Assembly: GCA_026707285.1 (NCBI GenBank)
Contig: JAPOXD010000053.1
Span: 5,344-69,343 of the forward strand
Reading direction: 5' to 3'
Length of the DNA: 64,000 nucleotides
From: Chloroflexota bacterium
GTDB lineage: Bacteria > Chloroflexota > UBA11872
The first letter of the stretch is position 1, and every line of letters begins with the position of its first letter. The position numbers were made by a program, and so were the translations under genes. Shown one piece after another: positions 24,308 through 41,861 of this stretch. The notes below the pieces were generated by a model. It saw only the letters and a list, made by a program, of their open reading frames with translations, was not told where the DNA came from and did not search any database.

Positions 24308-24380
24308 GAAACGCGCTCGGCAGCTAGCACCGCGCGTCGCGAGCGTCATTTCCAGATCGCTGCGGGATTACCAAATAGCC

Positions 24381-24410
24381 TTGGAAGTTACTATTGTAAC
24401 GCACTAGGAT
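24381..24410 (+). promoter_or_regulatory. Putative promoter of the packaging module with palindromic operator
   Basis: TTGGAA-18bp-TAGGAT with GTTACTATTGTAAC (24387-24400) in the spacer; AT-rich patch in GC-rich DNA. Confidence 0.65.
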
Positions 24411-24471
24411 AGGGGCTGTAGCACGACGGCGCGCGCTATGCGCACGGCGCCAATGACACCGGGAGGCCCCT

Positions 24472-26154
24472 TTGTCCGAGCTTCGCCCCGACGCGTTGCC
24501 CCCACCGTCCGAGTCTTATGTACAAGAGCTGGAGCAGCACCTGCTGACGGAGTTCGGCGGGCGCAATGCTCGCATCGAGCGGCTGCGGCGGCTGCGGTTC
24601 ATGGAAGAGCCGGTGGATATTCCGGCGGCCTACCGGGCCACCACGCGCGAGGTGCGGACGCCGCTGGCGCGGGAGCAGCTCAAGCGCGTCGTGGGCAGCC
24701 TCACCGCCAACCACCCGACCATCAGCGTGCCGCCGGCCGATCAGACGCCGGAGAGCCGGGCCAACGCCTCGCGCCGCGAGCGCTGGACGGCCGCGGCCCT
24801 GCGGCGCATGAAGAACGACGCCGGACGCGACATCTTCGGCATGTTCGTGGACGCGCTGGTGGCGGACGGCACCGGCGTGATGAAGCTGGTCTACGTGCCC
24901 GAGCGCTGGACGGGCTATCCGCGCCGCGGCGACGGCGGTCCCGAGACCGACTCGAGCTTCAACGAGCGGTCGACCCGGTTCAAGCGATCCGCGCCGTTCC
25001 CGCTGGCCTGGCGCGACGTGGACGTGCTGACCTTCTTCCCCCTGATCGGCGACGACGGCATCGAGGCCTGCCTCGAGATCTCCGAGCGCCCCAAGTGGCT
25101 CATGATGCGGCGCTACGGCCTGGTCGAAGACCGCCGGTCGGGCCGTCTCGCGCCGGCGGGACGCGCGGCGGCGAGCGAAGGTCCCGCGGCCGTCGGCGGC
25201 AGCGTGCGCGTGATCGAATACTGGGACCGCGAGCACTTCGCCTATTTGGTTGACGGCCACCTGGTGCGGCGCGGTCGCCACGCCTACGGCGCGGTGCCCT
25301 ACGTGATGGCGCACGGCAACCAGTCGCCCAGCCGCGACCCGGCCAAGGCCGGCGAGTCGATGCTCGCGTCGGTGGAGTATCTCGTGCCGCTCCTCGACCG
25401 CCTGCTCACCATGAAGCAGAACGCGGTGCACCTCTACGCGTATCCGACGCCCAAGCTCACCGGCTTCGCCGGCAGCGACGGCGCGCTGGGCGAGGACGGC
25501 CGTCCGCCGCCGATCGAGTTCCGGCCGGGCGAGATTCTGCCGCTGTTTCCCGGCGAAGACCTGAGCCTGCTGCAGTGGTCGGGCACGCCGCCCGATCTGG
25601 ACGAGCTGATCGCCCTCACGCGCTCGATGATCGACCAGGCCGGTGTGCCCACGGTGCTGTTCGGCATCGCGCCCGACGGCAACACCAGCGGCTACTACCT
25701 GAACCAGCTGATCAACGCGGCGCGGCTTTCGTTCAACCAGATCACGCGGCACGCCGAGCAGGCGCTGGAGCGCATCGTGCAGCTGGCCTGGCGCCTGGTC
25801 GAGCACCGGGTGCGGGAGACGGTCTACGTCTACGGCGATGAGGACGCCGCGTGGCTGGGCCTGTCGCCGCGCGACGTCAACGGCTACTACGCGGTGCGCG
25901 CCAAGCTGGAGGCCCTGGCCCCGGCGGATGAGATTGCCCAGGGCACCTACGCCGCCAACCTGGTGGCGGCCAAGCTGGCGTCGCGGCGCTGGGCCATGCA
26001 GGAGAAGCTGGGCATCGCCAACGCGGCGGAGATGCAGGCGGAGATCCTGCGCGAGGAGATGCTGGACGACCCGGAGGTCCGGCGCGAGCTGTGGCGTCGC
26101 GATGGCGGCGCGGCGGCGGATATGGACCGTGCGGCAGAGAAGGCGGCATCGTGA
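24472..26154 (+). CDS. Phage-type portal protein (podovirus-like)
   Basis: 560 aa; DALVADGTGVMKL, VIEYWD, HAYGAVPY, TSGYYLNQL patterns recall podoviral portals; adjacent to terminase; GGAGG RBS before TTG. Confidence 0.75.
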   Translation: MSELRPDALPPPSESYVQELEQHLLTEFGGRNARIERLRRLRFMEEPVDIPAAYRATTREVRTPLAREQLKRVVGSLTANHPTISVPPADQTPESRANASRRERWTAAALRRMKNDAGRDIFGMFVDALVADGTGVMKLVYVPERWTGYPRRGDGGPETDSSFNERSTRFKRSAPFPLAWRDVDVLTFFPLIGDDGIEACLEISERPKWLMMRRYGLVEDRRSGRLAPAGRAAASEGPAAVGGSVRVIEYWDREHFAYLVDGHLVRRGRHAYGAVPYVMAHGNQSPSRDPAKAGESMLASVEYLVPLLDRLLTMKQNAVHLYAYPTPKLTGFAGSDGALGEDGRPPPIEFRPGEILPLFPGEDLSLLQWSGTPPDLDELIALTRSMIDQAGVPTVLFGIAPDGNTSGYYLNQLINAARLSFNQITRHAEQALERIVQLAWRLVEHRVRETVYVYGDEDAAWLGLSPRDVNGYYAVRAKLEALAPADEIAQGTYAANLVAAKLASRRWAMQEKLGIANAAEMQAEILREEMLDDPEVRRELWRRDGGAAADMDRAAEKAAS

Positions 26155-26387
26155 CGGCGGCGAGACGGCGGCCGTCGCCGCACGACTTTCCGGCCCGCTT
26201 TCGCACGCTGGCCGAAGAGCACACGGACGAGATCTGTGACGCCGTCATCGCGAAGGCGCGCAAGGGCGAGCGCTGGGCCACCGAGCTGGTGATGCAGTAC
26301 GCCTTCGACCGCTCGGCCGAGGCGTCCGAGGACGCGCTCGTGAACCTGTTGGAGGAGATTCGCGCCCGCCTCGCGCACAGCGCGTGA
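26151..26387 (+). CDS. Putative terminase small subunit-like protein
   Basis: GTG overlaps the portal stop (GTGA); helical VIAKARKGERWATELVMQYAFDR motif; lies directly before terL. Confidence 0.5.
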   Translation: MTAARRRPSPHDFPARFRTLAEEHTDEICDAVIAKARKGERWATELVMQYAFDRSAEASEDALVNLLEEIRARLAHSA

Positions 26388-26391
26388 GGCG

Positions 26392-27663
26392 CTGTGGCGG
26401 CGCGTCGGCTACGCGCCCAGTTCCGAGCAGCGGCAGGCGCACGACTCGCCCGCGCGCATTCGCCTGATCGCCGGCGGTGAGCGCGCCGGCAAGAGCCGCA
26501 GCGCCGCCATGGAGCTATTCGGCCGCTGCCTGGAAGGCCGGCTCTACTGGCTGGTGGGCCCGGACTACGAGCTCTGCCGGCCCGAGTTCCGGTACCTGGC
26601 CGAGGCGTTCGGGGCCATCGGGGCCGTCGACAGCCTGAGCTTTCCCAGCTCGGAGCAGTGCCGGCTGACGCTGCGCACCGGGGCGCGGATCGTGACCAAG
26701 TCGGCCCGCGATCCGGCGCGGCTGGCCGGCGAGGCGCCCGATGGGATCCTGGGCTGCGAGGCGGCCCAGCTGCCGTTTGAGGTCTACTTGCGCCTGCGGG
26801 GCCGCGTGGCGGAGCGCCGGGGCTGGCTCTGGCTGAGCGGCACCTTCGAGGGCTCGCGCGGTTGGTACGCCGACCACTTCAGCGCCTGGCAGGTGGTGAA
26901 CGCCGACGGCGCGGCGTCGTTCTCCATCCCCACCTGGTCCAACCGGACGTTGTTTCCGGGCGGGCGCGCGGACGCCGAGATTGAGGCGCTCGAAGCGACC
27001 TATCCGGCGGCGGTGTTTCGGGAGCGGTTCGGCGGCGTGCCCTGCCCGCCCGCGACGCTGGTGTTTCCCGAGTTCGAGCCGGCGCGGCACGTCGCCGCGG
27101 TCGACCCGGCCACCGTCGAAACTGTCGAGCTTGCCATCGACCCGGGTTACGCCGGCGCGTATGCCGTGCTCGCGGTAACCGAGGCGGCCGGCGTGGCGCG
27201 GGTGATCGACGAGGTCTACCACCGCCGCATGGTTGCCGCCGAAGTCATCGCCGAGTGCCGACGGCGCTGGTGGTGGCCGCGCGTGAGCGGCGGGGTGATC
27301 GACGTCGCCGGACGTCAGCACCACGCCAGCGCCAGCCAGGTCGAGATCTGGCAGGCCCTGGCGGGGTTGCGGCTGCGGTCCCGCCCGGTGCGGATCCAGG
27401 ACGGCATCGATCGGCTGCGCACGTTTCTGCGCGACCCGGCCAGCGGCGAGCCGCGGCTGGTTCTGGCGCCGGCCTGCCGCGCGCTGATGCAGGAATTTGG
27501 CAGCTACCGCTACCACGAAGCGCGGGACGACCGCCCGATTTCGGAGCTGCCGATCGACCGCGACAACCACGCCATCAAGGCGCTGGCCTACTGGCTCTAC
27601 GACCGCTTCGGCCCGGTCGCGCGGCCCCCGCGGTCGTACCGGCCGTTCGCGCTGGTGCGATAG
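26392..27663 (+). CDS. Phage terminase large subunit (no canonical start upstream of Walker A)
   Basis: In-frame Walker A GGERAGKS at 26473-26496 lies upstream of ATG 26509; Walker B-like GILGCEAAQ; RNase H-like LAIDPG, VIDVAG, DRDNHAIKAL. Start given is CTG 26392 (tentative). Confidence 0.85.
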   Translation: MWRRVGYAPSSEQRQAHDSPARIRLIAGGERAGKSRSAAMELFGRCLEGRLYWLVGPDYELCRPEFRYLAEAFGAIGAVDSLSFPSSEQCRLTLRTGARIVTKSARDPARLAGEAPDGILGCEAAQLPFEVYLRLRGRVAERRGWLWLSGTFEGSRGWYADHFSAWQVVNADGAASFSIPTWSNRTLFPGGRADAEIEALEATYPAAVFRERFGGVPCPPATLVFPEFEPARHVAAVDPATVETVELAIDPGYAGAYAVLAVTEAAGVARVIDEVYHRRMVAAEVIAECRRRWWWPRVSGGVIDVAGRQHHASASQVEIWQALAGLRLRSRPVRIQDGIDRLRTFLRDPASGEPRLVLAPACRALMQEFGSYRYHEARDDRPISELPIDRDNHAIKALAYWLYDRFGPVARPPRSYRPFALVR

Positions 27664-27745
27664 CGGCGCCGGCGCAGGGAATCCTGTTTCAGCGCTGTCC
27701 GCTGCTACGATTCGACGCCAGCGCGCGCCGCGGCGAGGGGTCGGG

Positions 27746-28102
27746 ATGGCGAATAACCCGCGTGAGACGAACGAGCTCTCGCTCAAGCTCGACTGGTCGG
27801 GCTTCGAGGAGCTGTCGGTCCACTTTGTGAACCGGTTTGCCGTGCAGCACGACGCGCAGGCCAACGAGTTCTATCTCAACGTCGGCGCGGTGTCGCCGCC
27901 GCTGCTCATGGGGTCCGACGCGGACGTCATGGCCGCCGCCGCCAAGCTGCGGGAACGCGGCACGGTTCCGGTGCATCCGGTGGCCCGCCTGGCCCTGACC
28001 CCGGAGCGCGTGCTCGAGCTGATCCGCGCGTTGCAGACGAACTACCGCAACTATCAGGAGACCCAGGCGCGGCGCCAGGCCGACGCCGACGCTACCGAGT
28101 GA
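27746..28102 (+). CDS. DUF3467-like small protein
   Basis: FVNRFAV...EFYLNVG...VARLALTPERVLELIRAL pattern; ATG 27746 after GAGGGG. Confidence 0.55.
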   Translation: MANNPRETNELSLKLDWSGFEELSVHFVNRFAVQHDAQANEFYLNVGAVSPPLLMGSDADVMAAAAKLRERGTVPVHPVARLALTPERVLELIRALQTNYRNYQETQARRQADADATE

Positions 28103-28122
28103 GCGCCCTCGGGCGGCCGGCC

Positions 28123-29274
28123 CTAGCCGTCGCTTCCGCCTGAGTCGCGTCGGCGGCCTCTGCTCCTCTGAGCCTCCGCCCAACCCGACCGCTCGACGGC
28201 GGCGATCAGTTGGGCCAAAAGGTCCGGATTCACCGCGTAGCGCGTATTCCGACCTTTGCCCGATCGCACGGCGGCGCCACAGGACACCATGTGCGTCAGG
28301 TCCGCGTAGGCGGTGGATGGGGACGCGCCGATCAGGCGCGCGTACATGGAACTGGAGACGGAGCCCGTGTCGATGATGTACGTCAGGCCCAGCGTCTGCC
28401 GCTCGTTCAGACGTGTGCCGAACTCTTCCCGCCAGGCGTCCTGACGCCCGTTGAAGACCACGATGAAGTGTTCAAGCATCGTCGCGGCCGTGCTCAGAGC
28501 GTCGGTGTGAAATGCGGCGAATGGTGTCCCATCGACCTCCGACTGGAAGTCCAGGCCGTGCGTGTCGCGGAGTGCCTGGTAGTAGCTGTCGCGGTCGCGC
28601 CAGATCACCACATTCGGCACCAACATGCCCTCCGCCGACCAACCCGCCTGGTGCAGGATCATGTCGGCCAGGAGACGGGCCGTCCGACCGTTTCCCTCCT
28701 CGAACGGGTGGATCGAGACCAGTCCGGCGTGCGCCAGCGCCGCGATGATCGGCGGGGGATAGCTTTCCTCGGCCACCCATCGCTGGATGTGGGCTACGAG
28801 CTGGTCCATCAGGTCTGGGACCCAAGCCGGCGGGGGCGGGCGGTAGCGGATCTCGCGCGACTCCGCGTCCTCGATCAGGCTCGGTCCCGTGCGGTACTGC
28901 CCACGGCCCCCTGACATCTCCTCCGGCAAGCCCTCGAGGATCAGCGAGTTCATGGCGCGCAGCAGTCCCTGGTCGATCCGTGCCGTCGGGTCCGCCGCCA
29001 GCTGCTCCATCAGCGCATAGGCGCCCCACAGGTTCGTCAGCTCGCGCTCCTCGGGTCGGACCGGATCGCCCTCGCCCGCGAACAGGACGCGGGCCTCTTC
29101 ATAGCCGAGGGGGTTGCCCTCCACCTTCGCCGAGGCGAGCGTGCTCAGATAGCGCGCGCGCTCGCGGAAATAGGGCTCGTAGCCGCCAGGGACCAACGTG
29201 CGGACCTCGTAGAGTCGCCGAAACAGAGAATCCGTGTCGATATCGCCGACATCCGCGGCTAGTGAAAGTTCCAT
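28123..29274 (-). CDS. Fic family protein with C-terminal HTH
   Basis: HPFEEGNGRTARLL Fic motif, SAKVEGN, C-terminal winged-helix (STAYADL...GKGRNTRY). Confidence 0.9.
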   Translation of the reverse strand: MELSLAADVGDIDTDSLFRRLYEVRTLVPGGYEPYFRERARYLSTLASAKVEGNPLGYEEARVLFAGEGDPVRPEERELTNLWGAYALMEQLAADPTARIDQGLLRAMNSLILEGLPEEMSGGRGQYRTGPSLIEDAESREIRYRPPPPAWVPDLMDQLVAHIQRWVAEESYPPPIIAALAHAGLVSIHPFEEGNGRTARLLADMILHQAGWSAEGMLVPNVVIWRDRDSYYQALRDTHGLDFQSEVDGTPFAAFHTDALSTAATMLEHFIVVFNGRQDAWREEFGTRLNERQTLGLTYIIDTGSVSSSMYARLIGASPSTAYADLTHMVSCGAAVRSGKGRNTRYAVNPDLLAQLIAAVERSGWAEAQRSRGRRRDSGGSDG

Positions 29275-29678
29275 ACATGCACCAATACACCACTCCCTTC
29301 CGGCCAATGATGATTCGATAGCCACGGTCTGTCAAGGGAATAATCCATTGGTCCAATGCGATATTCCATTAGCGGAGTGCCCGATCTCGGACCGTCGGTA
29401 GCGGGGCGCCTACCGAATCCGCTGGCGCGCGTGGGTGAAGCCGGTCCGCGGGCTGGAGTCCGCGGGATTGGCGCACGCCTCGGCCACATGCTGGCGAGTG
29501 CGCACCGGGCGCGGCCATACTCAGTCGCACCGTCGGTTGCGGCGACAATCCGATTCGACTCCCGTTTGCGCGAGCGATTCCGCGCGGCATGCTGGTCTCC
29601 GGGCGCACTGGCACCCTGGCGGCGCGATGGCGGAGCTTGAATCGGTCGCCCGTTGACGCAAGCCCTGGCGGTGGCGCC

Positions 29679-31136
29679 ATGGAGCAGCGCTCGCCGCGAC
29701 TCGATCTAGCTCGCGCGGCGGTGCTGGCGCTGCTGGCGGGCTTGATCTATGTCCTCTCCTCGGGGGGCCACGCCTACAGCGTGGACGAGATCACCAACTA
29801 CGCTTCGGCCCGGGCGCTGGTTGAAACGGGCAGTCCCGACCTGTCCGGCGAGCAGCCGTTTCCCCGCGAGCAGCTGCTGACGCTGCGGCACCCGTCGACG
29901 GAGCGGACCACCGGCCGGTATGGCCTGCTGTCGTGGGCGGGAATGTCGCCCGCCTATCTCCTTGCGAGCTGGACCAACTCGCTGCCGCCGGCCCCGTCGC
30001 CGACGTTTCCCCAGCCGAGCGCGGTGCGGCCGGTGGCCGCGCTGCTCTACGGGCCGCCGATCGCCGCCCTGCTCGTGGGTGCAACGTTTCTGCTGGGGCG
30101 CAATCTCGGCTTGCGACCCCGCTATGCCGCCGTGGCGGCAATGCTGCTGGCGTTTGCCAGCCCCCTCTGGGTGTACGCCCAGGGACTCGCCAACATCCCG
30201 CTCGCCGCGCTGTTCAGCGTGTTGGCGTTTGTGGCGGTCACCGGCTCGCGCTCAGGAGCCGGAGTCTGGGCCGTTGCCGGCGGCCTCACCGGACTTGCCG
30301 CGCTGACGCGGCCGGAGTTCGTGGTTCTCGCGCCGGCGGTCGGTGTCTTGGGCCTGTTGAGCGAGGGGCGCCTGTCGCGGGTCGGTCTGACCCGCGGGCT
30401 GGCGTTTGCCGCGGCGTGGGCCGTCGTGGCCATCCCGGGCATCGGCCTCTGGAACCTCTACCGAACCGGCGACTTCTTTGATGTCGGCTATCGGACGGCG
30501 TCGATCCTCTGGCAAACGGACCGCGCGTATATCGGCATGTTCGGCGTGCTGGCCAGTCCCAGCTTTGGGCTGCTCGTTTTCATGCCCGTCGCCGCCGTGG
30601 GGCTGTGGGGGATCCTCGGCGCGACGTCACGCCGGCCGGTCTGGCTGGTTATGTTGGCGCTGACCCTGCTGGCGGTCGTCGGCTATGGGTCATTCGACGA
30701 CTGGTTCGGCGGCGTCTCCTGGGGACCTCGATACCTCACCACCGTCACGCCATTCCTGGCGCTCGGCGTGGGACTGGCGATGCAGTCGGCGTCGGCGACC
30801 CTGGGCATGCGCCTGGCGACGCTTGGCCTCGCGGCGTGGTCGACCGGCCTGTCGGTGCTGGGCGTGCTGTTCGACTACCAGTCGGGCTGGCGCAATCTCT
30901 GGGACCACGGGGCGCGCCCGGAGCAGATCGAGTGGAATCCGCACTTCTCACTCATCGGCGCCCACCTGCGGCTGGCCCGCCAGTGGGTCGATGGTCTGAT
31001 CGGGCCGGATCTCTTCGTGGTGCACCGGCTGGGGCCGTGGACAATGGCGGTGCTGGCGGCGGGATTGCTGGTGGTTCTCGGCCTCGCCTGGGCGATCGAG
31101 ACCCGCGGCGCCGGCTGGCGCCGCCGCAGCGGCTGA
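29679..31136 (+). CDS. Polytopic membrane protein, GT-C/PMT-like glycosyltransferase
   Basis: SVDE acidic motif in the first external loop, many TM helices, WFGGVSWGPRYL. Confidence 0.65.
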   Translation: MEQRSPRLDLARAAVLALLAGLIYVLSSGGHAYSVDEITNYASARALVETGSPDLSGEQPFPREQLLTLRHPSTERTTGRYGLLSWAGMSPAYLLASWTNSLPPAPSPTFPQPSAVRPVAALLYGPPIAALLVGATFLLGRNLGLRPRYAAVAAMLLAFASPLWVYAQGLANIPLAALFSVLAFVAVTGSRSGAGVWAVAGGLTGLAALTRPEFVVLAPAVGVLGLLSEGRLSRVGLTRGLAFAAAWAVVAIPGIGLWNLYRTGDFFDVGYRTASILWQTDRAYIGMFGVLASPSFGLLVFMPVAAVGLWGILGATSRRPVWLVMLALTLLAVVGYGSFDDWFGGVSWGPRYLTTVTPFLALGVGLAMQSASATLGMRLATLGLAAWSTGLSVLGVLFDYQSGWRNLWDHGARPEQIEWNPHFSLIGAHLRLARQWVDGLIGPDLFVVHRLGPWTMAVLAAGLLVVLGLAWAIETRGAGWRRRSG

Positions 31137-31170
31137 ACGACGTGGAGTTCGGGCCGCGCCACGGGGTTGT

Positions 31171-32601
31171 TCACTCCGGCGGCTGGCGCCCCATTCGGCG
31201 TGCCGCGAACAGCCCGAAACCAGGCGGCCCTGGTCGGACGCTCTCCACGAGGACGAGTGGGATCAGCGCGATCGCCGTCAGCGCGACGGCCGCGTCCGCC
31301 ACCAGCAGCCACCAGCGTGGATCGGTGGTGAGGAGCCGCCCGATCGCGGCCAGCTTGCTGAGCGTGGCCTCGGGCGTGCTGTAGGCAACAAACTCCAGGT
31401 TTTGATCCGGCCAGGCCAACTCGCCGTTGATCCAGAGCCGACCGTCCTCGTAGCGGTTGCCATTGGTCAGGCCAACGCCAAGCTCCGCGCCGGGCGCGAC
31501 ATCGGCCGCGACTTGGGCGGCCAGCGGCTGGCCCTCAGCGGCGGTGAGCGGCGGTTGGAGCTCAATCATCTTCCAGCGCGGACAGTCGCCCACCGGGACC
31601 TCGATCGACCCTTCGGCCAGCGTCCGGTCGAGCGTGTCAAGGGGTGCGACGCGCACCGTGATCGCTCCCCCGTGACCGTCCCACTCGCAATTGAAGAGGA
31701 GGAGCTCGAGGCTCTGCACGGGCGTGGCCGGCATGCGGAACTCCTGGACCAGGGCTTCCTGGCGGCCGAGGGTCACCTCGAAGGCGCCGGAACGCGTATA
31801 GGGGGCCGGCGCCTCGATCAGCGGCGCACGGAAGAGGAACGCGAGCGCAAGGCTTCCGAGAATGGCCAGCGCCGCGATCGATCCGACGAGCGACCGACGC
31901 CAGCGGCCGCCGAAGAGGGGATACGGCGGCGGGCGACCATTGCGCAGCACGCCGACCGCGCTGAGTCCGATCAGCAGGGTCCCGCTGAACTCCGCAGTTT
32001 CTTCGAGCACGTATCCCAGCGCCACCGCGCCACCGGTGGGCATCCAGCGCCCGATCGCCTCCTGCACCAGCACAAACACCCAGCAGGCGATGCCAAGCGT
32101 CAGCGGCGCGCGGGCCGCCCGCACGCTCAGACCCTTGCGGACAAAGAACCACATCGCCAGCACGAACACGGCGACCAGCGGACTCACCAGCACGGGCCAC
32201 GGCAGGCCGGTGCGTCCGGCCTGATCGAAGAGGGAGATTGGTCCACGGTCCTTGAACTCGGCCAACTCCTCGAAGGTCAAGGCCGCGGCCGTCAGGGTCA
32301 GTGCGGCCCATCCGGCGACCGCAATCCAGCCGGCCGAGCGGCGGAAGCTGACGGCAGCGGCGGCGAGCGCAAGCGCCGTCACGCAAGCCAATCCGGCGGC
32401 CGACACGGAGTTGGCAATCGTGCCTTCGTTGTCGGCGTCCAGCCGGCCCAGGGTGGGGTCCCAGGGCGGAAGCAGCTCCGGGAATGCCAGGCTGAAGAGA
32501 TGCGTGGCGGCATATCCGCCCCACCAGAAGGCCACCACGCCCAACAGCAGCACACGTGCCGTCCACTCCAACACGCGCCGGACGGCGATTCCCGTCATCA
32601 A
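31171..32601 (-). CDS. Multi-pass membrane protein with extracellular beta domain (paralog of 45138-46589)
   Basis: EGTIANS, FEELAE, EETAEF; QEALVQEFRMP and GRLWINGxLAWPDQ shared with 45138-46589. Confidence 0.7.
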   Translation of the reverse strand: MMTGIAVRRVLEWTARVLLLGVVAFWWGGYAATHLFSLAFPELLPPWDPTLGRLDADNEGTIANSVSAAGLACVTALALAAAAVSFRRSAGWIAVAGWAALTLTAAALTFEELAEFKDRGPISLFDQAGRTGLPWPVLVSPLVAVFVLAMWFFVRKGLSVRAARAPLTLGIACWVFVLVQEAIGRWMPTGGAVALGYVLEETAEFSGTLLIGLSAVGVLRNGRPPPYPLFGGRWRRSLVGSIAALAILGSLALAFLFRAPLIEAPAPYTRSGAFEVTLGRQEALVQEFRMPATPVQSLELLLFNCEWDGHGGAITVRVAPLDTLDRTLAEGSIEVPVGDCPRWKMIELQPPLTAAEGQPLAAQVAADVAPGAELGVGLTNGNRYEDGRLWINGELAWPDQNLEFVAYSTPEATLSKLAAIGRLLTTDPRWWLLVADAAVALTAIALIPLVLVESVRPGPPGFGLFAARRMGRQPPE

Positions 32602-32783
32602 GCGATGGGGCGGAGCGTGTCAGGGCGCATGGGCGAGGGCTGAGTGCTCAAGCGAATGCAGTGGACCTTTGAGGCTACAGCGGCCGGCCGCACGTCGCAT
32701 CGAAACCGGCGCTCCCGTCGCCGGTACGCGTTTTCGACACCGGCAAGCATCGAGCCCGGTGCCCGGTCCAGCGGGTGTCTCGC

Positions 32784-34238
32784 CTACTGGAACCGGTCCG
32801 GCGCGCGCGTGAAGTTGATCTGGGGTCCGGCGGCGCGGACGGCGGCCTCGCCGCCGCTGCGCTCCACCAGTCGGCGCTGGTCCGCCTTGGCCTCGGCCTC
32901 GACTGCCTCGGGATCGACGATCGTGCGCAGTTGCGCCTCGAAGCGCTGCAGCTCGGCGGCGAATGAGGGATCGCCCGCCAGGTCCTGACGCTCCTCCGGG
33001 TCGTTCGCCAGGTCGAAGAGTTGCGGCGGAAAGCCGTGGTAGTGCACGTATTTCCAGCGCTCGTCGCGCAGCATGAACGCGCCCGACACCGAGCCGCTGG
33101 CGTGGTATTCGGCGAACGTCGTGCGCGACGCCGGTCCCTCGCCCCGCGCGAGCGGCCACAGCGACATGCCGGGCAGGTCCGCGTCGGCGGCCTCGAGCGG
33201 CACGCCCACCCCCTCGCAAATGGTCGGAAAGGCGTCCACCAGCGAGACGCTCACGTCGCGCACCGCGCCAATCGGCACGTCGGGTCCGGCCAGGATCAGC
33301 GGCGCGGCCACGGCGCTGTCGTACATCACGCTCTTGCCCCAGAGCCCGTAGTCGCCCAGCGTCTCGCCGTGGTCGCTGGTGTAGATCACGCGGGTGCTGT
33401 CGGCCAGGCCGCACGCCTCCAGCGCGTCCAGCACACGCCCGATCTGCCGGTCCAGATAGGTGCACATGCCCAGGTAGGCGGCGATGGCGCGGCGCGTGGG
33501 CTCCTCGCCCGGGAAGTCGTCGGGCGTGAATATCCGCGCCTCGCGGAACGCCGACACGTGCGGATGATCCGGCCACTCGTCGGGCTGCCACTGGATCGGC
33601 AGCGGCACGTCGTGCAGCGGGTAGCGCGCGAAGTCGGACGGCGGCGCGATCAGCGGAAAGTGCGGCAGCGTGAAGGAGACGAAGAGGCACCAGGGCTCCA
33701 GGTGCCGTCCAGACTCGTCCCGGAGCCAGGCGCAGGCCTCGTCGGCGATGGCGGCGTCGAAGCGCAGGTATTCCGAATCGCCCGGCCCCGCCGCGTGAAC
33801 GTTCTCGAGCTGGCGGCGCGCGCGCGGCATGTTCCAGCGAATCGAGCCGAACGCGTCGCCGCGCTCGAACATCACGTGCATGGGAAGGCGCTGGTCCGGC
33901 AGTCCGATGTCGTCGCGCGTGTTGCGGTAGTGCAGCTTGCCGATCGAGGTGACCTGGCGGCCGTGGGCGCCCAGCCGGTGGCCCCAGCTTGGCGCCGCCT
34001 CGCCGGTGTAGGGCATGGCGTTGTCCCAGGCGCCGATCTCGTGGCCGTAGCGCCCGGTGAGGAAGCTCGCCCGCGAGGGCACGCAGATGGGGATGTTGCA
34101 CGCGGCGTTGGTGAAGCGCGTACCGCGGGCCGCCAGCACGTCGAGGTGCGGCGTCTGGACCAGCGGATGCCCGGCGCAGCCGAGCACGCGGGCGTTGTGC
34201 TCGTCCGACATGATGACGAGCAGGTTTTGGGGTTGCAT
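32784..34238 (-). CDS. Sulfatase (choline-sulfatase-like)
   Basis: SDEH, CVPSRAS formylglycine motif, GKLH, SDHGE, LFDLANDPEE. Confidence 0.92.
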   Translation of the reverse strand: MQPQNLLVIMSDEHNARVLGCAGHPLVQTPHLDVLAARGTRFTNAACNIPICVPSRASFLTGRYGHEIGAWDNAMPYTGEAAPSWGHRLGAHGRQVTSIGKLHYRNTRDDIGLPDQRLPMHVMFERGDAFGSIRWNMPRARRQLENVHAAGPGDSEYLRFDAAIADEACAWLRDESGRHLEPWCLFVSFTLPHFPLIAPPSDFARYPLHDVPLPIQWQPDEWPDHPHVSAFREARIFTPDDFPGEEPTRRAIAAYLGMCTYLDRQIGRVLDALEACGLADSTRVIYTSDHGETLGDYGLWGKSVMYDSAVAAPLILAGPDVPIGAVRDVSVSLVDAFPTICEGVGVPLEAADADLPGMSLWPLARGEGPASRTTFAEYHASGSVSGAFMLRDERWKYVHYHGFPPQLFDLANDPEERQDLAGDPSFAAELQRFEAQLRTIVDPEAVEAEAKADQRRLVERSGGEAAVRAAGPQINFTRAPDRFQ

Positions 34239-34261
34239 TGTTGATCTCCGGCGCGGCATCG

Positions 34262-34660
34262 CTACGACAGGTCGACCAGCGAGACCGCAACGTCCGTCGC
34301 GGAACGCAGGATCTCTCGGTCAGCGGTCACCAGAGGCACATCTAGTTGGCGTGCCAAGACCACGAATTCGGCGTCATAGGCGCTCAGTCCACAGGCCAGC
34401 GCGGTGTCCAAGACGTCAGTGCTCGGAACCGTGAACACACGATCCCCCAGCACCTCCACCGCGTCCGCGCACATCACCTCAGCATGCTCCGGCGACAGCG
34501 CGTCCCGTCGCACGAAGCCCACCAGCGCGTTGCGCAGCTCGCTGAGCAGGATTCCGGGTGCCGCCCACAGGGGATCCCGCTCCAGGAGCTGCGTTGCGTC
34601 AGGCCCGCTCGGGCCGCCGATGAGCAGGTAGACCATGATGTTCGTGTCGACCACGATCAC
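34262..34660 (-). CDS. vapC: VapC/PIN-domain toxin
   Basis: IVVDTN, LSAYDAEFVVLA, LVTAD. Confidence 0.9.
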   Translation of the reverse strand: MIVVDTNIMVYLLIGGPSGPDATQLLERDPLWAAPGILLSELRNALVGFVRRDALSPEHAEVMCADAVEVLGDRVFTVPSTDVLDTALACGLSAYDAEFVVLARQLDVPLVTADREILRSATDVAVSLVDLS

Positions 34661-34899
34661 AGGCGACCGGCGTTTCGCAACTCCCGCAGTGTCGCCTCGC
34701 TGAGGTCGATCGGGCCCAGAGTCTCGCGGCGCTGTCGAATCCGCGCCAGCAGTGCCGTGACGTCTGCGGTACCGGGTCGAACGGAAGCCGTAAGGCGCGC
34801 CAGGATCTCGCCGTTCAGGCTGCGATGGTTGCGCGCTGCCGCCGCCTTCAGTTCGCGGTGCAGGTCGTCAGGAATTCCTCGCAGCGCAATCTGCCGCAT
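34657..34899 (-). CDS. Ribbon-helix-helix (Arc/FitA-like) antitoxin
   Basis: IALRGIPDDLHRELKAAAARNHRSLNGEI; overlaps the toxin start. Confidence 0.85.
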   Translation of the reverse strand: MRQIALRGIPDDLHRELKAAAARNHRSLNGEILARLTASVRPGTADVTALLARIRQRRETLGPIDLSEATLRELRNAGRL

Positions 34900-34914
34900 G
34901 GTGTCTCTCCAATA

Positions 34915-34935
34915 GTGATATCAAGACGATAGCAC
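34915..34935. promoter_or_regulatory. Putative TA autoregulatory operator
   Basis: GTGATATC-N5-GATAGCAC imperfect inverted repeat just upstream of the antitoxin. Confidence 0.5.
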
Positions 34936-35053
34936 ACCAACATCCACGAGGTCCTTGCCAAGATTCCCATGAGAATCCCCACGCTGCACGCAGACCGGGC
35001 CACCGAACTCCGTCTGATGCCGCCGCGCAATGCCTTGTCGCTTTGTACTCGAC

Positions 35054-35082
35054 TTGCATACGTTACTAAAGTTACGTAGAGT
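35054..35082 (+). promoter_or_regulatory. Putative promoter of the capsid-tail-lysis module with the same operator as the portal promoter
   Basis: TTGCAT-17bp-TAGAGT with GTTACTAAAGTTAC (35062-35075) in the spacer. Confidence 0.65.
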
Positions 35083-35453
35083 TCCCTATGTAAGCACGCA
35101 CGCGGATGCGCCCGGCGCTCCGGACCCGGAGCCGCGCGAGTGGGTCCCGTGGGTGTGCGCCGCGGTCGGCGCCCGGTGTGGCCGGGCCGGCCCGCAGGCG
35201 GCGGACGCGCCTCGCAAGGCGGATGGACGCCCGTGTGGACCGGCGCCGGCGCTCCGGCGTCCCGATCGACGGGCGCCGCACGCTTCCGCGCGGCTGGAAG
35301 GCGGCGGTCCGGCGGCATCACCGGCAGGAGTCCGGCCCGGTGTCCCGGCCGCCGCCTTTGGGACGCCCTTTACCCAGGGGGTCGTCTCCCGGATCCGCGC
35401 GGCGAGCCTTCATTGCTCCCCCGACGCCCGTTTGGGGCGTGAAAGGAGAGTCC

Positions 35454-36752: not shown

Positions 36753-37565
36753 GTGGTCGTGAGCGTCACGCGAGCGGCGCTGCGGCAGGCCGTGGCCGCG
36801 CGGATGATGCGCACGGTGGTCGGCGTGGCCAGCGGCGGGTCCACCGTGGCGCTGGCCGACCCGGACCGGCTCCAAGACGCCGGCGCGTCGGACGACGCGT
36901 GGACCGGCGCCTGGCTGCACATCACCGCGGGGGCCAATGCGGGCGAGGTCCGGCGCGTGACGGTCTACGACCCGGCGTCGGGGTCGGTCACGGTCAATCG
37001 GCCCTTTGCACAGCCCATCGACGGGACGTCGGCCTACGAGCTGCTGCGCCTGCTCTCGCCGGCGGAGCTGCATCAGGCCATTGACGACACGCTGACGCGC
37101 TGCTGGCGCCGAACGCTGGCCGACCTGACGTCGGTCGCCGACGCTCAGCGGCAGTTCCCGCTGCCGGCCTGGGTCACTCGACGCCAGCAGGTCGTCGAGG
37201 TTTGGGAGCGTCGCGGCGAGCACCTGCGCGCGGTGGATTGGTGGCGGCTCAGGCGACGTCCGGTTGCCAGCCCTTCGCCGTTCTGGTTGGAGGTTGGGCA
37301 CGCGCCGGGCGGGGCGTTGGTGGTCGAGGCGCTGCGTCCCTACGAGGCTCTGGCCAACGACCAGGGCATCACCGACGCCCCGGCTGACTGGGTAGTGGCG
37401 GGGGCGCTGGCGCACGCCTATCGGCGCCTGCGCCGGGACGCGCCGGCGGCGGATGTGGACCGATATGCCGCGCTGCAGTGGGAAGCCGCGCACGAGTTTC
37501 AGCGGCTCTCCCGGCTCTACCAGCCCCGAGCCGTGCGGCGGGTGCAGCTCGGGGAGCGGCTGTAG
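36753..37565 (+). CDS. Putative head-tail adaptor protein
   Basis: TRAALRQAVA N-terminal helix, ELHQAIDDTL, position after the capsid gene. Confidence 0.6.
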   Translation: MVVSVTRAALRQAVAARMMRTVVGVASGGSTVALADPDRLQDAGASDDAWTGAWLHITAGANAGEVRRVTVYDPASGSVTVNRPFAQPIDGTSAYELLRLLSPAELHQAIDDTLTRCWRRTLADLTSVADAQRQFPLPAWVTRRQQVVEVWERRGEHLRAVDWWRLRRRPVASPSPFWLEVGHAPGGALVVEALRPYEALANDQGITDAPADWVVAGALAHAYRRLRRDAPAADVDRYAALQWEAAHEFQRLSRLYQPRAVRRVQLGERL

Positions 37566-39896
37566 ATGTCCACGTCGCGGCGATCCCCCTTCCCCTATGA
37601 CTGCGTGCTGCATGGGACGGGCCTGATGCTGGACGACGACGGCGGCCTGGCCTGGCGCGAGCGACGCCTCGAGTCGCTGCCGCCGCCGATCTCGGGGCCG
37701 GCCCGGGCCTACGCCCAGTTTCCCTCCGAGCATGAGGCCGCCTGGACCACCGGCGACCTGACGGGCGGCTACGGCGCGAGCACGTCAACGGCGGAGGGCG
37801 GACGGCAGTACGCCCACGGCTTCGTGGACGCGCGCTTTCCCAATCAGATCATGTTGCCACCGGCCCTCACCGAGAGCCGCGTCGGCGGGGACGGCACGGT
37901 GCGCGGCCACTTCGAGTTGGGCGGCGTGCTGTACGCGCTGATCGGCTCGGCCGTCTACCAATCAACCGACGGCGCCCGCTGGACGCTGGCGCACCAGTTT
38001 GGCGACGGCGACACGCCGGTTTCGGCGGCTGTCTTCCAGGGCGCGGCGGCGGCGCCTCACGCGTTCGTCGCGGTCGGCGGCGGGCCCGGTGACGGTCCCT
38101 ATTGGACGTTCGACGGCAAGGCGTGGACGCCCCATCCGGGAGTGCAGGCGAAGCCGACCGCCGTGCTTGCGACGACCGACGGCGGCGTGACCTACACCGA
38201 TCAGACGGAGTCGGCCGAGGTTCGCCTGAGCGGCTCGGCCGCGGGCGGCGCCTGGCTGCTCCTGGGATCCGACGCACCGTTCGACAGCGTGCGACTGGAC
38301 CCGCGCGAGCGAATCAACCGGGGCGCCGCAACGCTCACGGCCGAGTTTTGGACGGGCGCTGCGTGGGAGCCTGTCAGTGACTGGGTCGACCGGACGATCG
38401 TCGAGTCCGCCACGCTGGGGCGCGCCGGCGCGGGTGAGTTCACGGAGCCCGTCACGTGGCGTCCTTCACTCATCGAGGACATCCAAGCCTTCTGGCTGCG
38501 CCTGTCGGCGACCGCGCCACTGGACTCCAGGGTCCGGCTGCACGGCATTGCCGTGCACCAGCCCCGCAAGGCCGACCGGTTCCTCGTGGTCGGAGATGAA
38601 CTGTTGCGCTCGTCGTCGGAATCAGGCGTCCCCCGGATTTCGCGCTCGGTGGACGGCGGCGACGACGCGGCGTGGACGTCTGGCGAGCCGGTCGGCGGCC
38701 CGGGTCACGCCGTGACGGCGCTGGTGTCACTGGGCGACATGCCTTACGCGGTCACGACCGACGGGCTGTATCGCATTCGACCATCCGGTGAGGCGGCGTT
38801 CGAGGCGTCGTGGCCACGTCCGGCGGCACTGCGCGATCGGAGTGACGGCCGGGGAGGCGCGGTGTGGCGCGGGGCGTGGTGGCTGCCATCGAAGGAGGGG
38901 CTCTATCGCTTCGCGCCGGGCGCGTTCGAGCTGGTGGGGCCCGAGACGCTGCCGGACAACGACTCGGCGGTTCGCGGCCGCATCACCGCCTGCGCGGGCG
39001 ACGCCTTTTTCTTGTACGCCGCCCTCCGCAGCGACCAGGGCGTCACCTATCTGCTGTGCTACGACGCGGAGCGCGGCGCCTGGCATCCCCTGGCCGACCT
39101 TGGCCGACGCGAATGCCGCCATATGTGGGTCTCGGACGTTCCTGGGCCAAACCCGCGGCTGTACCTCGGGCTGGACGACGACATTGGCGCGATCATCCTG
39201 CCGCGGCACACCGCCAATCCCTTGCACGACCCGCGGTGCCGCTTTGCCCCGTCGGGCGAGCTGCGGCTGTCGCGCTTCCACGGCAGCCCCGCCGCCCGAC
39301 GCACCGCGTTTCTCGGGCTGAACATCGACGGCGCACGGCTGGGGCCAGACGCCTTTGTCGACGCCGCCTACCGGCTGGATGGGCACGGGGCTTATGCGCC
39401 GCTCGGTCGCTTCGCCACCGCCTCGGGCCAGCGGGTCGACTTCGGTTCGGCGGTGGCCGGCACTTCGATCGATCTGCGCCTGCGGCTCACGACACACAGC
39501 GACCGCGCCACGCCGGTGATCCGGGCCGTCACGCTGGCCTACGCGGCGCGCACCGGCTTCCGGCGCGTCTTTGACTTCCGCGTGCGGCTTGCCGACCGGC
39601 TCTCGCTGCGAGACGGAGGCCGGGACCGGCGGGCGGCGCGCGACATCAAGCGGGCGCTCATGGCGGCGGCGGCCTCGGAGCTGCCTGTGGTGCTCACCAC
39701 CCCGGACGGCGAGGCGCTGGAAGTGCTGGTGCGCGAGGCCGAGGTCCGCGCGACGGGCCGGCCGCTCGCATGGGCCATGCACATCTCCGCCACGGAGTAC
39801 CGGCCGACCGCTGCCCATGGCCGGCATCGCCGCCTCGCGACCTATCGCCATGACCACCTGGCGGCCTATACGCACCGCCAGATCAGCCAGCTCTAA
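37566..39896 (+). CDS. Putative short-tail nozzle/tail structural protein (beta-propeller-like)
   Basis: 776 aa rich in beta-strand and W/G motifs (STDG..W); translationally adjacent to the adaptor; C-terminal 8-aa His repeats. Confidence 0.6.
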   Translation: MSTSRRSPFPYDCVLHGTGLMLDDDGGLAWRERRLESLPPPISGPARAYAQFPSEHEAAWTTGDLTGGYGASTSTAEGGRQYAHGFVDARFPNQIMLPPALTESRVGGDGTVRGHFELGGVLYALIGSAVYQSTDGARWTLAHQFGDGDTPVSAAVFQGAAAAPHAFVAVGGGPGDGPYWTFDGKAWTPHPGVQAKPTAVLATTDGGVTYTDQTESAEVRLSGSAAGGAWLLLGSDAPFDSVRLDPRERINRGAATLTAEFWTGAAWEPVSDWVDRTIVESATLGRAGAGEFTEPVTWRPSLIEDIQAFWLRLSATAPLDSRVRLHGIAVHQPRKADRFLVVGDELLRSSSESGVPRISRSVDGGDDAAWTSGEPVGGPGHAVTALVSLGDMPYAVTTDGLYRIRPSGEAAFEASWPRPAALRDRSDGRGGAVWRGAWWLPSKEGLYRFAPGAFELVGPETLPDNDSAVRGRITACAGDAFFLYAALRSDQGVTYLLCYDAERGAWHPLADLGRRECRHMWVSDVPGPNPRLYLGLDDDIGAIILPRHTANPLHDPRCRFAPSGELRLSRFHGSPAARRTAFLGLNIDGARLGPDAFVDAAYRLDGHGAYAPLGRFATASGQRVDFGSAVAGTSIDLRLRLTTHSDRATPVIRAVTLAYAARTGFRRVFDFRVRLADRLSLRDGGRDRRAARDIKRALMAAAASELPVVLTTPDGEALEVLVREAEVRATGRPLAWAMHISATEYRPTAAHGRHRRLATYRHDHLAAYTHRQISQL

Positions 39897-39906
39897 AGGA
39901 GGACCG

Positions 39907-40587
39907 ATGCCAACGACGACGCTGAATCTCAACCTCACCAAGCCGCTCCCCCCGGAGCGGTATGACGTGGGGGGCGTTAACGCCAACGCAGACGCAGTCG
40001 ACGCGGCCTTCGATGCCGCCTCCGGGCATCGGCATGACGGCACGGCAGGGCAAGGACCACCCCTGGACAGCGACGCGCTCGCCGATGGGGCGGTCACGGA
40101 CCCGAAATTGGCGCCCGGCGCGGTGGTCACCGACGCCTTGGCGGACGCAGCGGTGACCGCGGACAAGCTGGCCGACGCCGCCGTGACGGCGGCGAAGCTG
40201 GCGCCCAATGTCGGCGGCATCGCACTGGCCAGCGTCCAGGACGGCGCCGGGCGGAACGACACGCGCGTTTCCGCCCTCCGCGCGGAAGCCGGTTGGGGTT
40301 TCATTTCGCTCGCCGCGCTGCAGAGCGACGAGAGGGCTATCACCTTCGAATCGGCCTTCGGCTCGGCGCCCATCGTGTTCGTGTCGCCCCTTGGGGCGCA
40401 TGTCGGCGCCAGCCCCCCTGAGTCCATTGACGACTTTGGCGATTACCACGCGAACCACCAGCGCTTTTCGAGCGTGTTTGCCAAGGACATCACGGCCAGT
40501 GGCTTCACCGCCGAAGCCATCCGCGCGACCGCGGCGAATGGACAGTGGGCAGGCTTTGCCTGGATGGCGCTTGGGGTGAGCGCCTAG
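39907..40587 (+). CDS. Tail fibre-like protein
   Basis: N-terminal NLNLTKP...NADAVD, GHRHDG, 10-aa LADxAVTxxK repeats, C-terminal ITFESAFGSAP...ITASGF...WMALG (gp53/H-lectin-like); AAAGGAGG RBS. Confidence 0.78.
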   Translation: MPTTTLNLNLTKPLPPERYDVGGVNANADAVDAAFDAASGHRHDGTAGQGPPLDSDALADGAVTDPKLAPGAVVTDALADAAVTADKLADAAVTAAKLAPNVGGIALASVQDGAGRNDTRVSALRAEAGWGFISLAALQSDERAITFESAFGSAPIVFVSPLGAHVGASPPESIDDFGDYHANHQRFSSVFAKDITASGFTAEAIRATAANGQWAGFAWMALGVSA

Positions 40588-41600
40588 TGCCGCGCCAGGC
40601 CCCCGACCCCACGCCCCTCCTGGGCGTGCACTTCTGGAATCCGGCGCGGACGCCGGGCTATCCCGTGCCGACCCTCTTTGTCGAGCACGTGTATACGCAT
40701 CCTGGGGGCGACCGGCAGCCCCATTGGCGGGAAATGGCGAGCCGCTGCCGCGTGCTGCGCGACGCCGGGCATCGGGTCCTGCTCAAGGTCAAGTACCGAG
40801 CCGGCGTCGATCAGCCACGGACCGGGGCAGAGCTGGACACGTATCTCCACGGGCTGGAGGCGCTGGCGCCGAAATTTGGCGGCATCGACGTGACCTTCGG
40901 CAACGAGCCCAACTGGCGGCGCTCCGAGGCCGACGACTCCAGCGTGAGCCCCGCCTGGATGGCGCGGGTGTTCAACGGTGCCGGCAACGAGCCGAGCGAT
41001 CCGTGGAACGCCCTCCAGGTGTGGCGGACGCACGCCGCATCCCGCTGCCGCTTCTTCGTCACGCCCACGGGGCCGTTTGCCCCGCGCGGCGGACGGCCCA
41101 AGGCCGCGGTGGAGCAATCGCCGTGGGCGCGCTACACGGCGGAGTTTTGGGAGCGGTGCCGGGACGCGGCGCAAACGGCCTGGTCGCGGCGCTTCCAGGG
41201 CGTGGTCCTGCACGCCTACGCACGCACCGGGCCCAACGGCGACGACCACGGGGGACGGCACGAGCCGTGGCGCGACCCGCGCGACCGCCTGGAGCGGCGG
41301 TGGGGATCCAACGTCTTGCAGACGTGGGACGAGACCCTGCGCACCGTCGGGCTGGCGCGCAAGCCGGTCATCATCGCGGAATACAACGCGCGCACCGACG
41401 CGCCCTCCGCCGCGGCCTATCCGCCGGGCCTGCTGCCGAACGCATTTGCCTACGCCTGCGCCGTGTTCGGGCGACGCCTCGAGGGTCTGGCCTGGTTCGT
41501 GGATGCCAACGGCGACGGCCATTGGCGCGATGAAGCCTTGACCGATGGCGTGGGGCGGATGGCGGAGGCCGACGCCGACTTTCGACGGATCTGGGCGTGA
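40587..41600 (+). CDS. Clan GH-A-like glycoside hydrolase
   Basis: FGNEPN acid/base motif, LHAY, VIIAEYN nucleophile motif, LAWF; GTG overlaps the previous stop. Confidence 0.65.
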   Translation: MPRQAPDPTPLLGVHFWNPARTPGYPVPTLFVEHVYTHPGGDRQPHWREMASRCRVLRDAGHRVLLKVKYRAGVDQPRTGAELDTYLHGLEALAPKFGGIDVTFGNEPNWRRSEADDSSVSPAWMARVFNGAGNEPSDPWNALQVWRTHAASRCRFFVTPTGPFAPRGGRPKAAVEQSPWARYTAEFWERCRDAAQTAWSRRFQGVVLHAYARTGPNGDDHGGRHEPWRDPRDRLERRWGSNVLQTWDETLRTVGLARKPVIIAEYNARTDAPSAAAYPPGLLPNAFAYACAVFGRRLEGLAWFVDANGDGHWRDEALTDGVGRMAEADADFRRIWA

Positions 41601-41845
41601 CAAGCGGCGCACGCCCGACGCCCGACGGCAACGGCCGCCTCCTGGCGCGCATCGACGAGCGCACGGCGTCGATCCTGCGCGAGGTGGCGCAGTTGCGGGC
41701 GGACCTGGCGGCGCACAAGACCGAGTCGCGCGCGACCTACGTGACGCGGGTGGAGTTTCGGCCCATCCGCGGTCTGATCTACGGCCTGGTGGGTCTGACC
41801 CTGACGAGCGTGGGCGGCGGCGTGCTGGCCCTGGTGCTGCGATGA
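41597..41845 (+). CDS. Small membrane protein (XhlA/holin-like)
   Basis: Coiled N-terminus LARIDERT, YVTRVEF, single C-terminal TM helix; precedes the endolysin. Confidence 0.65.
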   Translation: MTSGARPTPDGNGRLLARIDERTASILREVAQLRADLAAHKTESRATYVTRVEFRPIRGLIYGLVGLTLTSVGGGVLALVLR

Positions 41846-41861
41846 CCGCCGAGGCGGGCTG

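Follow-up and report, generated by a model that had tools for sequence, protein, structure and literature searches.

The 64,000-nucleotide stretch analyzed here (the window; contig C15:5344-69343) belongs to the 3.21-Mb draft genome (67.7% G+C) of an uncultured Chloroflexota bacterium that, according to the titles of related records, dwells in sponges. It contains the genes of a phage-like particle in two separate modules: a portal module, which encodes a portal-like protein, the small protein ORF79, and the terminase large subunit (TerL), and a capsid module, which encodes the major capsid protein, further structural proteins, and lysis proteins. Several cargo genes lie between the two (Table 1). 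Each module is headed by a promoter-like sequence that contains a short box, GTTAC-N4-GTWAC, in its spacer. The box was followed by footprinting in 12 genomes of the genus, namely the window's own genome (G000) and 11 others, and in three further genera of the family (g2, g3, and g4). Judged from its sequence and distribution, it is probably a shared cis-element for one trans-acting factor, a reading to which we assign a probability of about 0.85.

In terms of promoter layout, the original prediction had given the sequences and positions of both promoter–operator regions, and these proved exact to the base. In the portal promoter, the box follows the −35-like hexamer at once (0-nt gap), 4 nt separate it from the −10-like hexamer, and the spacer is 18 nt long; in the capsid promoter, 2 nt precede the box, 1 nt follows it, and the spacer is 17 nt long. 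Both show the housekeeping-sigma pattern of TTGnnn and TAnnnT hexamers 17 ± 1 nt apart, and the portal and capsid hexamers, together with those of the terS promoter described below, probably constitute active promoters of this type. Within the genus, the left arm of the portal box is GTTAC in 11 genomes and ATTAC in one, and the right arm is GTAAC in all 12, around six different 4-nt centres. The place of the portal −10 hexamer is kept in all 12 genomes, and the −35 hexamer is variable yet always contains TTG. The left arm of the capsid box is likewise GTTAC in 11 genomes and ATTAC in one; its right arm is GTAAC in seven, GTAAT in four, and GTTAC in one, which is the window itself, where the capsid box is a direct GTTAC/GTTAC repeat and not a perfect inverted repeat. 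Considered as a whole, the capsid box reads GTTAC..GTAAC in seven genomes and GTTAC..GTAAT or ATTAC..GTAAT in four, with five different 4-nt centres among the 12. In most of these genomes, the capsid palindrome is a 20-bp TACGTTAC-N4-GTAACGTA that touches the −10 hexamer and corresponds to positions 35059-35078 of the window. The conservation of the capsid promoter starts abruptly about 10 nt 5′ of the −35 hexamer, and beyond about −45 the genomes are unrelated in sequence. A dyad with conserved arms and a free centre was found in the portal, capsid, and g3 promoters.

A genome scan and footprinting in relatives, which the original prediction had proposed, showed that the box is essentially confined to particle promoters and is conserved in relatives. 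GTWAC-N4-GTWAC has two sites in the whole genome, both of which are the particle promoters. Only 0.15 such double sites are expected from the observed GTWAC frequency, because GTWAC itself is under-represented: the pentamer occurs 687 times, whereas 3,092 occurrences are expected from the base composition (a 4.5-fold deficit). GTSAC is at expectation in the same genome, and codon usage or avoidance of the motif may account for the rarity of GTWAC. The core TTAC-N4-GTAA has one genomic site, at the portal promoter. When one mismatch was allowed, GTTAC-N4-GTAAC matched eight genomic sites, and five of the six that are not particle promoters lie inside open reading frames (ORFs). The lone intergenic one-mismatch box outside the particle loci (C10:49969, GTTACATTCGTCAC) is located about 25 nt 5′ of a 385-codon ORF. 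Among the 11 other genomes of the genus, all 19 perfect GTTACNNNNGTAAC sites are at portal, capsid, or terS promoters, and 27 of the 51 TTACNNNNGTAA sites in the 12 genomes are particle promoters. Further perfect boxes (G012, G013) and AT-rich TTAC-N4-GTAA sites (G004, G007) had no tie to particle genes or to a TerS-like ORF, and were set aside as chance or unrelated occurrences. An SOS/LexA regulon was also rejected, because the box is absent elsewhere in the genome; nor does the box fit GAAC-N4-GTTC, the LexA motif of Chloroflexi.

Perfect sites that belong to neither module were found in G006 and G001, 2–3 nt 5′ of the start codon of a 121-amino-acid helix-turn-helix (HTH) protein. This protein, in which the HTH is N-terminal, matched the profiles of small-terminase PHROGs (phrog_4102 at 1.2e-11), and the top five fold matches of its model (pLDDT 75) were all the Sf6 terminase small subunit (TerS), a weak but coherent result (best E 0.014, probability 0.99); a PDB sequence search gave no match. 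A terS gene was detected in 10 of the 12 genus genomes, and the two genomes in which it was not detected, both incomplete assemblies, still keep the boxes. It was not found in g2 or g4, and there was one weak match among 24 g3 genomes. In 10 upstream regions, the terS promoter has the form TTGGRA-18-TACAAT, its box, nTTAC-AATR-GTrrC, overlaps the −10 hexamer, and the stretch adjoining the −35 hexamer is portal-like: AAATAGCC, the portion of the conserved upstream block that adjoins the portal −35 hexamer, resembles AAATTGCC..TTGGGA at the terS promoter. The ATG lies 8–9 nt behind the −10 hexamer, which suggests that the terS transcript would be leaderless. The expectation that further regulon members would emerge was thus borne out by an unlinked terS gene that carries the box in relatives and supplies a missing packaging gene. 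TerS itself was considered as the box-binding regulator and set aside as the main reading; among the genera searched, it was detected in this genus alone, apart from the one weak g3 match, and it resembles the TerS of Sf6.

The strongest evidence for one trans-acting partner is that, where the dyad element changes, it does so in both promoters at once. In g2 and g4, GTTAC-N4-GTAAG or GTAAT is kept in both promoters, with the g2 portal box shifted by about 6 nt. In g3, the place of the box is taken in both promoters by another palindrome, GTAYNC-N5-GNGTAY, which begins 3 nt after the −35 hexamer and whose right arm runs into the −10 hexamer TAYAAT. With at most one mismatch, this motif, which was derived from the very sequences on which it is counted, was present in 16 of 16 g3 portal promoters (one portal locus without an anchor sequence was excluded) and 20 of 21 distinct capsid promoters, compared with 14 of 20,000 random 40-nt windows. 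The proposal that one trans-acting regulator serves both halves is therefore supported by the presence of the box in both promoters of all 12 genus genomes, its confinement to particle promoters, and the joint change of type in g3. One g3 locus (L096, G016:C1, about 4700-5320, minus strand) differs in organization: its TerL gene is displaced by about 7 kb from the portal gene and encodes an N-terminal HTH extension, a second copy of the portal-type promoter and box lies upstream of it, and six or seven iteron-like TGAACACAT repeats with a spacing of about 21–22 nt follow.

As to mechanism, the box (core TTAC-N4-GTAA; CGTTAC-N4-GTAACG at the capsid promoter) lies inside the footprint of RNA polymerase and would be the site of one dedicated dimeric DNA-binding regulator. 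This protein would be encoded elsewhere in the genome and would couple the dispersed portal, capsid, and terS loci. If it were a repressor, it would occlude the promoter, so that the lethal particle and lysis genes would be silent until a signal removed it; leaky expression would be costly, as a lysin and a holin-like protein are encoded downstream. The box falls within the −35 to +1 interval in the three promoter types of the genus and in both promoters of g2, g3, and g4, but its register varies: 0 nt after the −35 hexamer at the portal promoter, 2–3 nt at the capsid and g3 promoters, 6–7 nt at the g2 portal promoter, and over the −10 hexamer and start at the terS and g3 promoters. A repressor is favoured because a blocker tolerates such a variable register, whereas a factor that docks on the polymerase tolerates it poorly, and because the spacers have the optimal length of 17–18 nt and not the 19–20 nt of MerR-type activation. 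Both the binding of a protein and the sign of the regulation are read from the DNA, and we adopt the repressor tentatively, at slightly less than even odds.

Several observations weigh against a dedicated repressor or against a dedicated site altogether. Phage late operons are under positive control at the structural promoter, and GafA, in work attributed to Fogg in 2019, is said to be a direct activator of RcGTA, the gene transfer agent (GTA) of Rhodobacter capsulatus. Other known GTAs also show positive control at this promoter, for example, the Caulobacter GTA (CcGTA) through GafZ (PMC11150451) and the Bartonella GTA (BaGTA; 10.1101/2024.11.20.624540). The original prediction had called the regulator a probable repressor from the position of the site, which does not establish the claim: the palindrome at the same position in the CcGTA promoter binds the antiterminator GafZ (PMC11150451). 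A search of the window's ORFs and of the neighbours of terS turned up no regulator gene in or near either module or around terS. The earlier statement that no regulator lies inside either module is uncontradicted, although a small conserved ORF with no assigned function, ORF79, lies between the portal and TerL genes. The hexamers match the Escherichia coli sigma-70 consensus at 8 (portal) and 7 (capsid) of 12 positions, below the threshold of 9 of 12 in our consensus promoter scan, which did not list either promoter. At terS, the box is degenerate in the window's own genome (CTTACAATGGTATC, with 2 of 10 positions off), and its conservation may partly be just that of the −10 hexamer TACAAT. Finally, a reversed control pattern is about equally frequent (18 sites in the 12 genomes), so the argument rests on the placement of the sites, not on their number.

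In the alternative that survives best, a positive factor of the Q/GafZ/BrrG type would load or bind at the palindrome. This factor, a processive antiterminator or an activator, would bind in the promoter spacer, join RNA polymerase, and carry it through attenuating structures in the leaders and through long operons. It is a strong rival, which we nevertheless consider less probable than repression. The GafZ element (ZBE) of CcGTA has the same anatomy, being a near-perfect palindrome between the −35 and −10 hexamers that is needed for GTA synthesis, and BrrG of BaGTA binds at a sigma-70-like, constitutive promoter with a long attenuating leader behind it (PMC11150451; bioRxiv 10.1101/2024.11.20.624540). 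The structured 365-nt capsid leader, the GC-rich portal hairpin, and the TGTA(A)GC start motif common to both promoters would also suit such a factor. However, the register of the box differs among promoters, with overlap of the −10 hexamer and start at terS and g3, the first transcribed bases show no obvious −10-like pause element (TAnnnT), and no intrinsic terminator was called in the leaders, though they are strongly structured. No Q-like or GafZ-like gene was identified; no search with dedicated models was made.

It seems very improbable that there is no dedicated factor and that the palindrome, with no regulatory role of its own, merely reflects conserved AT-rich promoter sequence or the common descent of the promoters. 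The entire promoter regions are strongly conserved in the genus, the right arm overlaps the −10 hexamer in several promoters, and the control pattern has as many sites per genome as the box, all of which would fit a by-product, as would the modest overall similarity of the two regions. In a plain local alignment of the 136-nt portal and capsid regions, the score was reached by 18 of 2,000 dinucleotide shuffles and 138 of 12,000 genomic windows. This is only mildly unusual; our argument builds on where the sites lie and how they are conserved, and not on how alike the two regions are as a whole. MAFFT misaligned the regions, and strict and soft local alignments scored only modestly, so we make no claim that the two promoters are homologous throughout. 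The suggestion that one promoter arose by duplication of the other likewise goes beyond a likeness that is limited to functional elements. Promoter spacers are normally unconserved, yet here the arms are fixed while the 4–5 nt between them drift; the dyad symmetry is kept in both g3 promoters with a different sequence; and the box recurs at another register in a third, otherwise different promoter, that of terS. Least probable of all is a pac-like packaging site bound by an Sf6-type TerS, with the promoter position secondary: although an unlinked gene for an Sf6-like HTH TerS has the box 2–3 nt before its start codon, and P22-like and Sf6-like phages have their pac site in or near terS, TerS was not found in g2 and g4, which share the box, gave one weak match in the 24 g3 genomes, and was not detected in two (incomplete) genus genomes that keep their boxes, and packaging does not call for the position between −35 and +1 of a promoter that the box always occupies.

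The leaders downstream of the two promoters had also been described as similar. This applies to TGTA(A)GC at about +1, which is conserved in relatives, but not to the ATGCGCNCGGCGC part, which varies among portal leaders. The portal leader is 55 nt long and, beyond the start motif, the portal leaders keep just the GC-rich hairpin before the Shine-Dalgarno sequence (GGGAGG, 24461-24466). The outer stem of the hairpin is kept in the genus, as AGCGC/GCGCU in two genomes. The capsid leader is conserved at a length of 362–447 nt in four genera and contains a structured core. In this core, 94.6% of cells are paired (36–52% in slid controls), compensatory changes affect 10 of the 21 pairs, and the covariation score was reached by none of 500 shuffles. 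The covariance model of the core had a single genomic match (E 9.6e-11), and Rfam models at a permissive threshold gave no match in positions 23500-44000. The capsid leader RNA may be a new regulatory RNA, such as an attenuator, a protein-binding site, or a riboswitch-like element, in which case the capsid operon would be subject to a second, independent layer of control.

Table 1. Features of the particle modules and the unlinked terS gene (positions in the window unless a contig is given).
Feature	Position	Strand	Basis
Conserved upstream block GGATTACCAAATAGCC	24365..24380	+	Alignments: 12 sequences of the genus; upstream regions of 10 terS genes
Portal-operon −35-like hexamer TTGGAA	24381..24386	+	TTG-containing hexamer kept here across the genus
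Palindromic box GTTAC-TATT-GTAAC (GTTACTATTGTAAC) in the portal promoter spacer	24387..24400	+	Sequence and genus alignment
Portal-operon −10-like hexamer TAGGAT	24405..24410	+	TAGGAT in 10/12 and TATCCT in 2/12 genus genomes
Start-of-transcript motif TGTAGCAC, presumed +1 region	24417..24424	+	Conserved in the genus; counterpart TGTAAGCAC at 35089-35097
GC-rich hairpin of the portal leader, outer stem GGCGC/GCGCC	24428..24451	+	RNAalifold, 12 genus leaders
Portal-like protein, 560 amino acids, TTG start	24472..26154	+	phrog_156 portal, E 0.0099 (weak)
ORF79, 78-amino-acid helical protein, GTG start overlapping the portal stop	26151..26388	+	39–99% identity in eight relatives' loci
Terminase large subunit, start uncertain	about 26392..27663	+	phrog_2, 7.5e-23; 25–28% identity to actinophage TerL
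Inter-module cargo: Fic/DOC (−), two unknown proteins (+ and −), sulfatase (−)	28123..34259	mixed	Varies between genera
Capsid-operon −35-like hexamer TTGCAT	35054..35059	+	Invariant in 12/12 genus genomes
Box GTTAC-TAAA-GTTAC (GTTACTAAAGTTAC) in the capsid promoter spacer	35062..35075	+	Sequence and genus alignment
Capsid-operon −10-like hexamer TAGAGT	35077..35082	+	Invariant in 12/12 genus genomes
5′ leader of the capsid mRNA, GC-rich, about 365 nt, starting with TGTAAGCAC and ending with the Shine-Dalgarno sequence (35443-35450)	35089..35453	+	No coding signal before 35454
Structured core of the capsid leader: three-tier stem-loop with AGGA in the apical loop	35274..35360	+	Covariation, covariance model
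Major capsid protein, HK97 fold, 284 amino acids	35454..36308	+	Pfam Phage_capsid_4, PHROG major head protein
Remainder of the capsid module: two unknown structural proteins (270 and 776 amino acids), H-type lectin fibre, two unknown proteins, M23+SLT lysin, holin-like small hydrophobic protein	36753..43229	+	
terS homologue of the window's genome	C14:257800-258162 (locus L071:5801-6163)	−	Unlinked, among housekeeping genes

With regard to the particle genes, the identification of the portal protein draws on its homologues (n = 18), of which three were matched by the SPP1_portal family (best 4.7e-6), two by the P22 portal, and two by the lambda portal. Its AlphaFold model had a mean pLDDT of 50 and was of no use for identification, and a PDB sequence search gave no match. 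ORF79, which is conserved throughout the family, contains the motif GERWAxEL; it had no family match, and a language model led only to DUF5681. The protein is possibly a DUF5681 or TerS-like accessory protein. In the TerL region (26344-26510), there is no ATG, GTG, or TTG 5′ of the Walker A motif GGERAGKS, either here or in two of the eight relatives' loci examined; in the remaining relatives, a GTG or TTG does occur, though not always at the same position. The TerL frame overlaps the end of ORF79 with an offset of +1, and this arrangement suggests a non-canonical start or a frameshift fusion. The Fic/DOC-domain protein of the cargo (28123-29325, minus strand) has a weak DIP2311-like C-terminal regulator domain and is present in this genus alone. 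The corresponding interval in g2 is filled by a different, unrelated, enzyme-like gene, which, by eye from its sequence, looks like a member of the enolase superfamily. The ATG at 35106 was rejected as the start of the capsid gene, since the coding signal and conservation begin at the ATG at 35454, behind a GGAG Shine-Dalgarno sequence. The closest isolated phages by capsid sequence are Pelagibacter podophages (about 35% identity). Downstream of the holin-like gene, in positions 43250-47300, the codon signal weakens and the ORFs have no family matches; this stretch also holds a second SLT-like ORF (44677-45090), which is similar to part of the M23+SLT lysin. The outer flanks consist of host metabolic genes, and no integrase, replication gene, or recognizable regulator was found in the modules or flanks among the family and PHROG matches of the window's proteins.

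Across the relatives, the capsid protein (83–98% identity) was found in 23 of the 41 genomes searched, with 22 of 24 other genomes of the family and none of 16 of the sister family being positive; overall, the capsid gene is present in 23 of 25 family genomes and the portal gene in 35 of 38. The three family genomes that lack the element are G015, G021, and G041. The distance between the portal and capsid genes ranges from 5 to about 41 kb, and the two are on opposite strands in two genomes. Several genera share the same host neighbours, namely GH127 before the portal gene and a divergent sulfatase before the capsid gene. The dN/dS ratios of the capsid and portal genes (0.08–0.18, vs 0.21–0.26 for three flanking host genes) indicate purifying selection. 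The split had been thought to be maintained rather than an accident of decay, and this was upheld by the family-wide retention of the modules, the purifying selection, and the presence of different host genes between the modules in different genera. In one complete genome of the genus, the portal gene appears to be in two pieces with an in-frame TGA (G006:C1:2234228-2235804), and all three boxes are kept. The gene content follows the pattern of GTAs, with head, packaging, tail, and lysis genes but no replication, integration, or lysogeny genes. By its genes, from which alone it is known here, the particle set is a domesticated, vertically inherited, podovirus-derived, GTA-like element and not a decaying prophage; its domestication and vertical inheritance follow from the distribution, the shared host neighbours, and the dN/dS ratios.

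In defective prophages and at SOS genes, repressor operators that overlap promoters (PBSX Xre, LexA boxes) are likewise short dyad sites inside the polymerase footprint, at variable register, and silence lethal particle and lysis genes. In contrast to those systems, no Xre-type or CI-type gene adjoins the modules here, and the box is absent from the rest of the genome. The GafZ element of CcGTA (Tran and Le 2024, PMC11150451) resembles the box in being a palindrome between the −35 and −10 hexamers of a domesticated particle promoter, with accessory loci elsewhere. It differs in sequence (GCGCCCG-CTGGCGC), phylum, and ancestral phage, and GafZ has one target, compared with two to three promoters here; moreover, no GafYZ-like gene was identified in the Chloroflexota set (no dedicated search was made), in which the register varies. 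In BaGTA of Bartonella (Korotaev et al., bioRxiv 10.1101/2024.11.20.624540), BrrG is a Q21-like antiterminator at the bgtA-K promoter, and the likeness lies in a sigma-70-like promoter far 5′ of the capsid operon, a long leader, and one factor that coordinates separate loci. Unlike in BaGTA, no −10-like pause element or terminator was found here, a Q-like gene was not identified (again with no dedicated search), and the leader core is covarying and without a known family. RcGTA (Hynes et al. 2016, PMC5026251) is similarly encoded at dispersed, co-regulated loci that are vertically inherited and selected, but it is siphovirus-like and alphaproteobacterial, whereas the Chloroflexota element is podovirus-like with a different cis-element.

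Multilocus, co-regulated domesticated particles (RcGTA, PMC5026251) and a palindrome in the spacer of a GTA promoter (CcGTA) were already known. The novelty lies in the phylum, in the descent from a podovirus, in a motif with a co-evolving variant, in the deployment of a single element at two to three dispersed promoters, and in the leader RNA. No paper connecting gene transfer agents with Chloroflexi or Chloroflexota symbionts came up in full-text literature searches. In the widest scenario, a host-encoded master regulator would switch a three-locus, podovirus-derived, GTA-like system through a site that has co-evolved with it (GTTAC-N4-GTAAC in three genera, GTAYNC-N5-GNGTAY in the fourth). 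A new class of leader RNA would be a second checkpoint, and the split would have involved the re-use, and sometimes the copying, of a promoter–operator cassette. Judging from the literature searches, this would be the first such circuit reported in Chloroflexota, but as a whole the scenario is speculative, and we hold it to be doubtful.

Detailed knowledge of the circuits that control domesticated particles comes mainly from a few Alphaproteobacteria. In the present case, comparative genomics by itself defines a cis-element, compact and specific, that exists in two co-evolving versions with two to three targets per genome, corrects the start of the capsid gene, and reveals an unclassified structured leader RNA. 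A 14–20-bp bait, a reporter design, and a phylogenetic-profile filter provide a handle on the regulator and its inducing signal, and the box makes it possible to ask whether retention of the operator by each fragment is what keeps dispersed particle genes functional. Domesticated particles kill the cell that produces them, and the circuit that controls them consequently decides when a population exchanges DNA; in this case, the particle system has been retained by an entire family of uncultured sponge symbionts.

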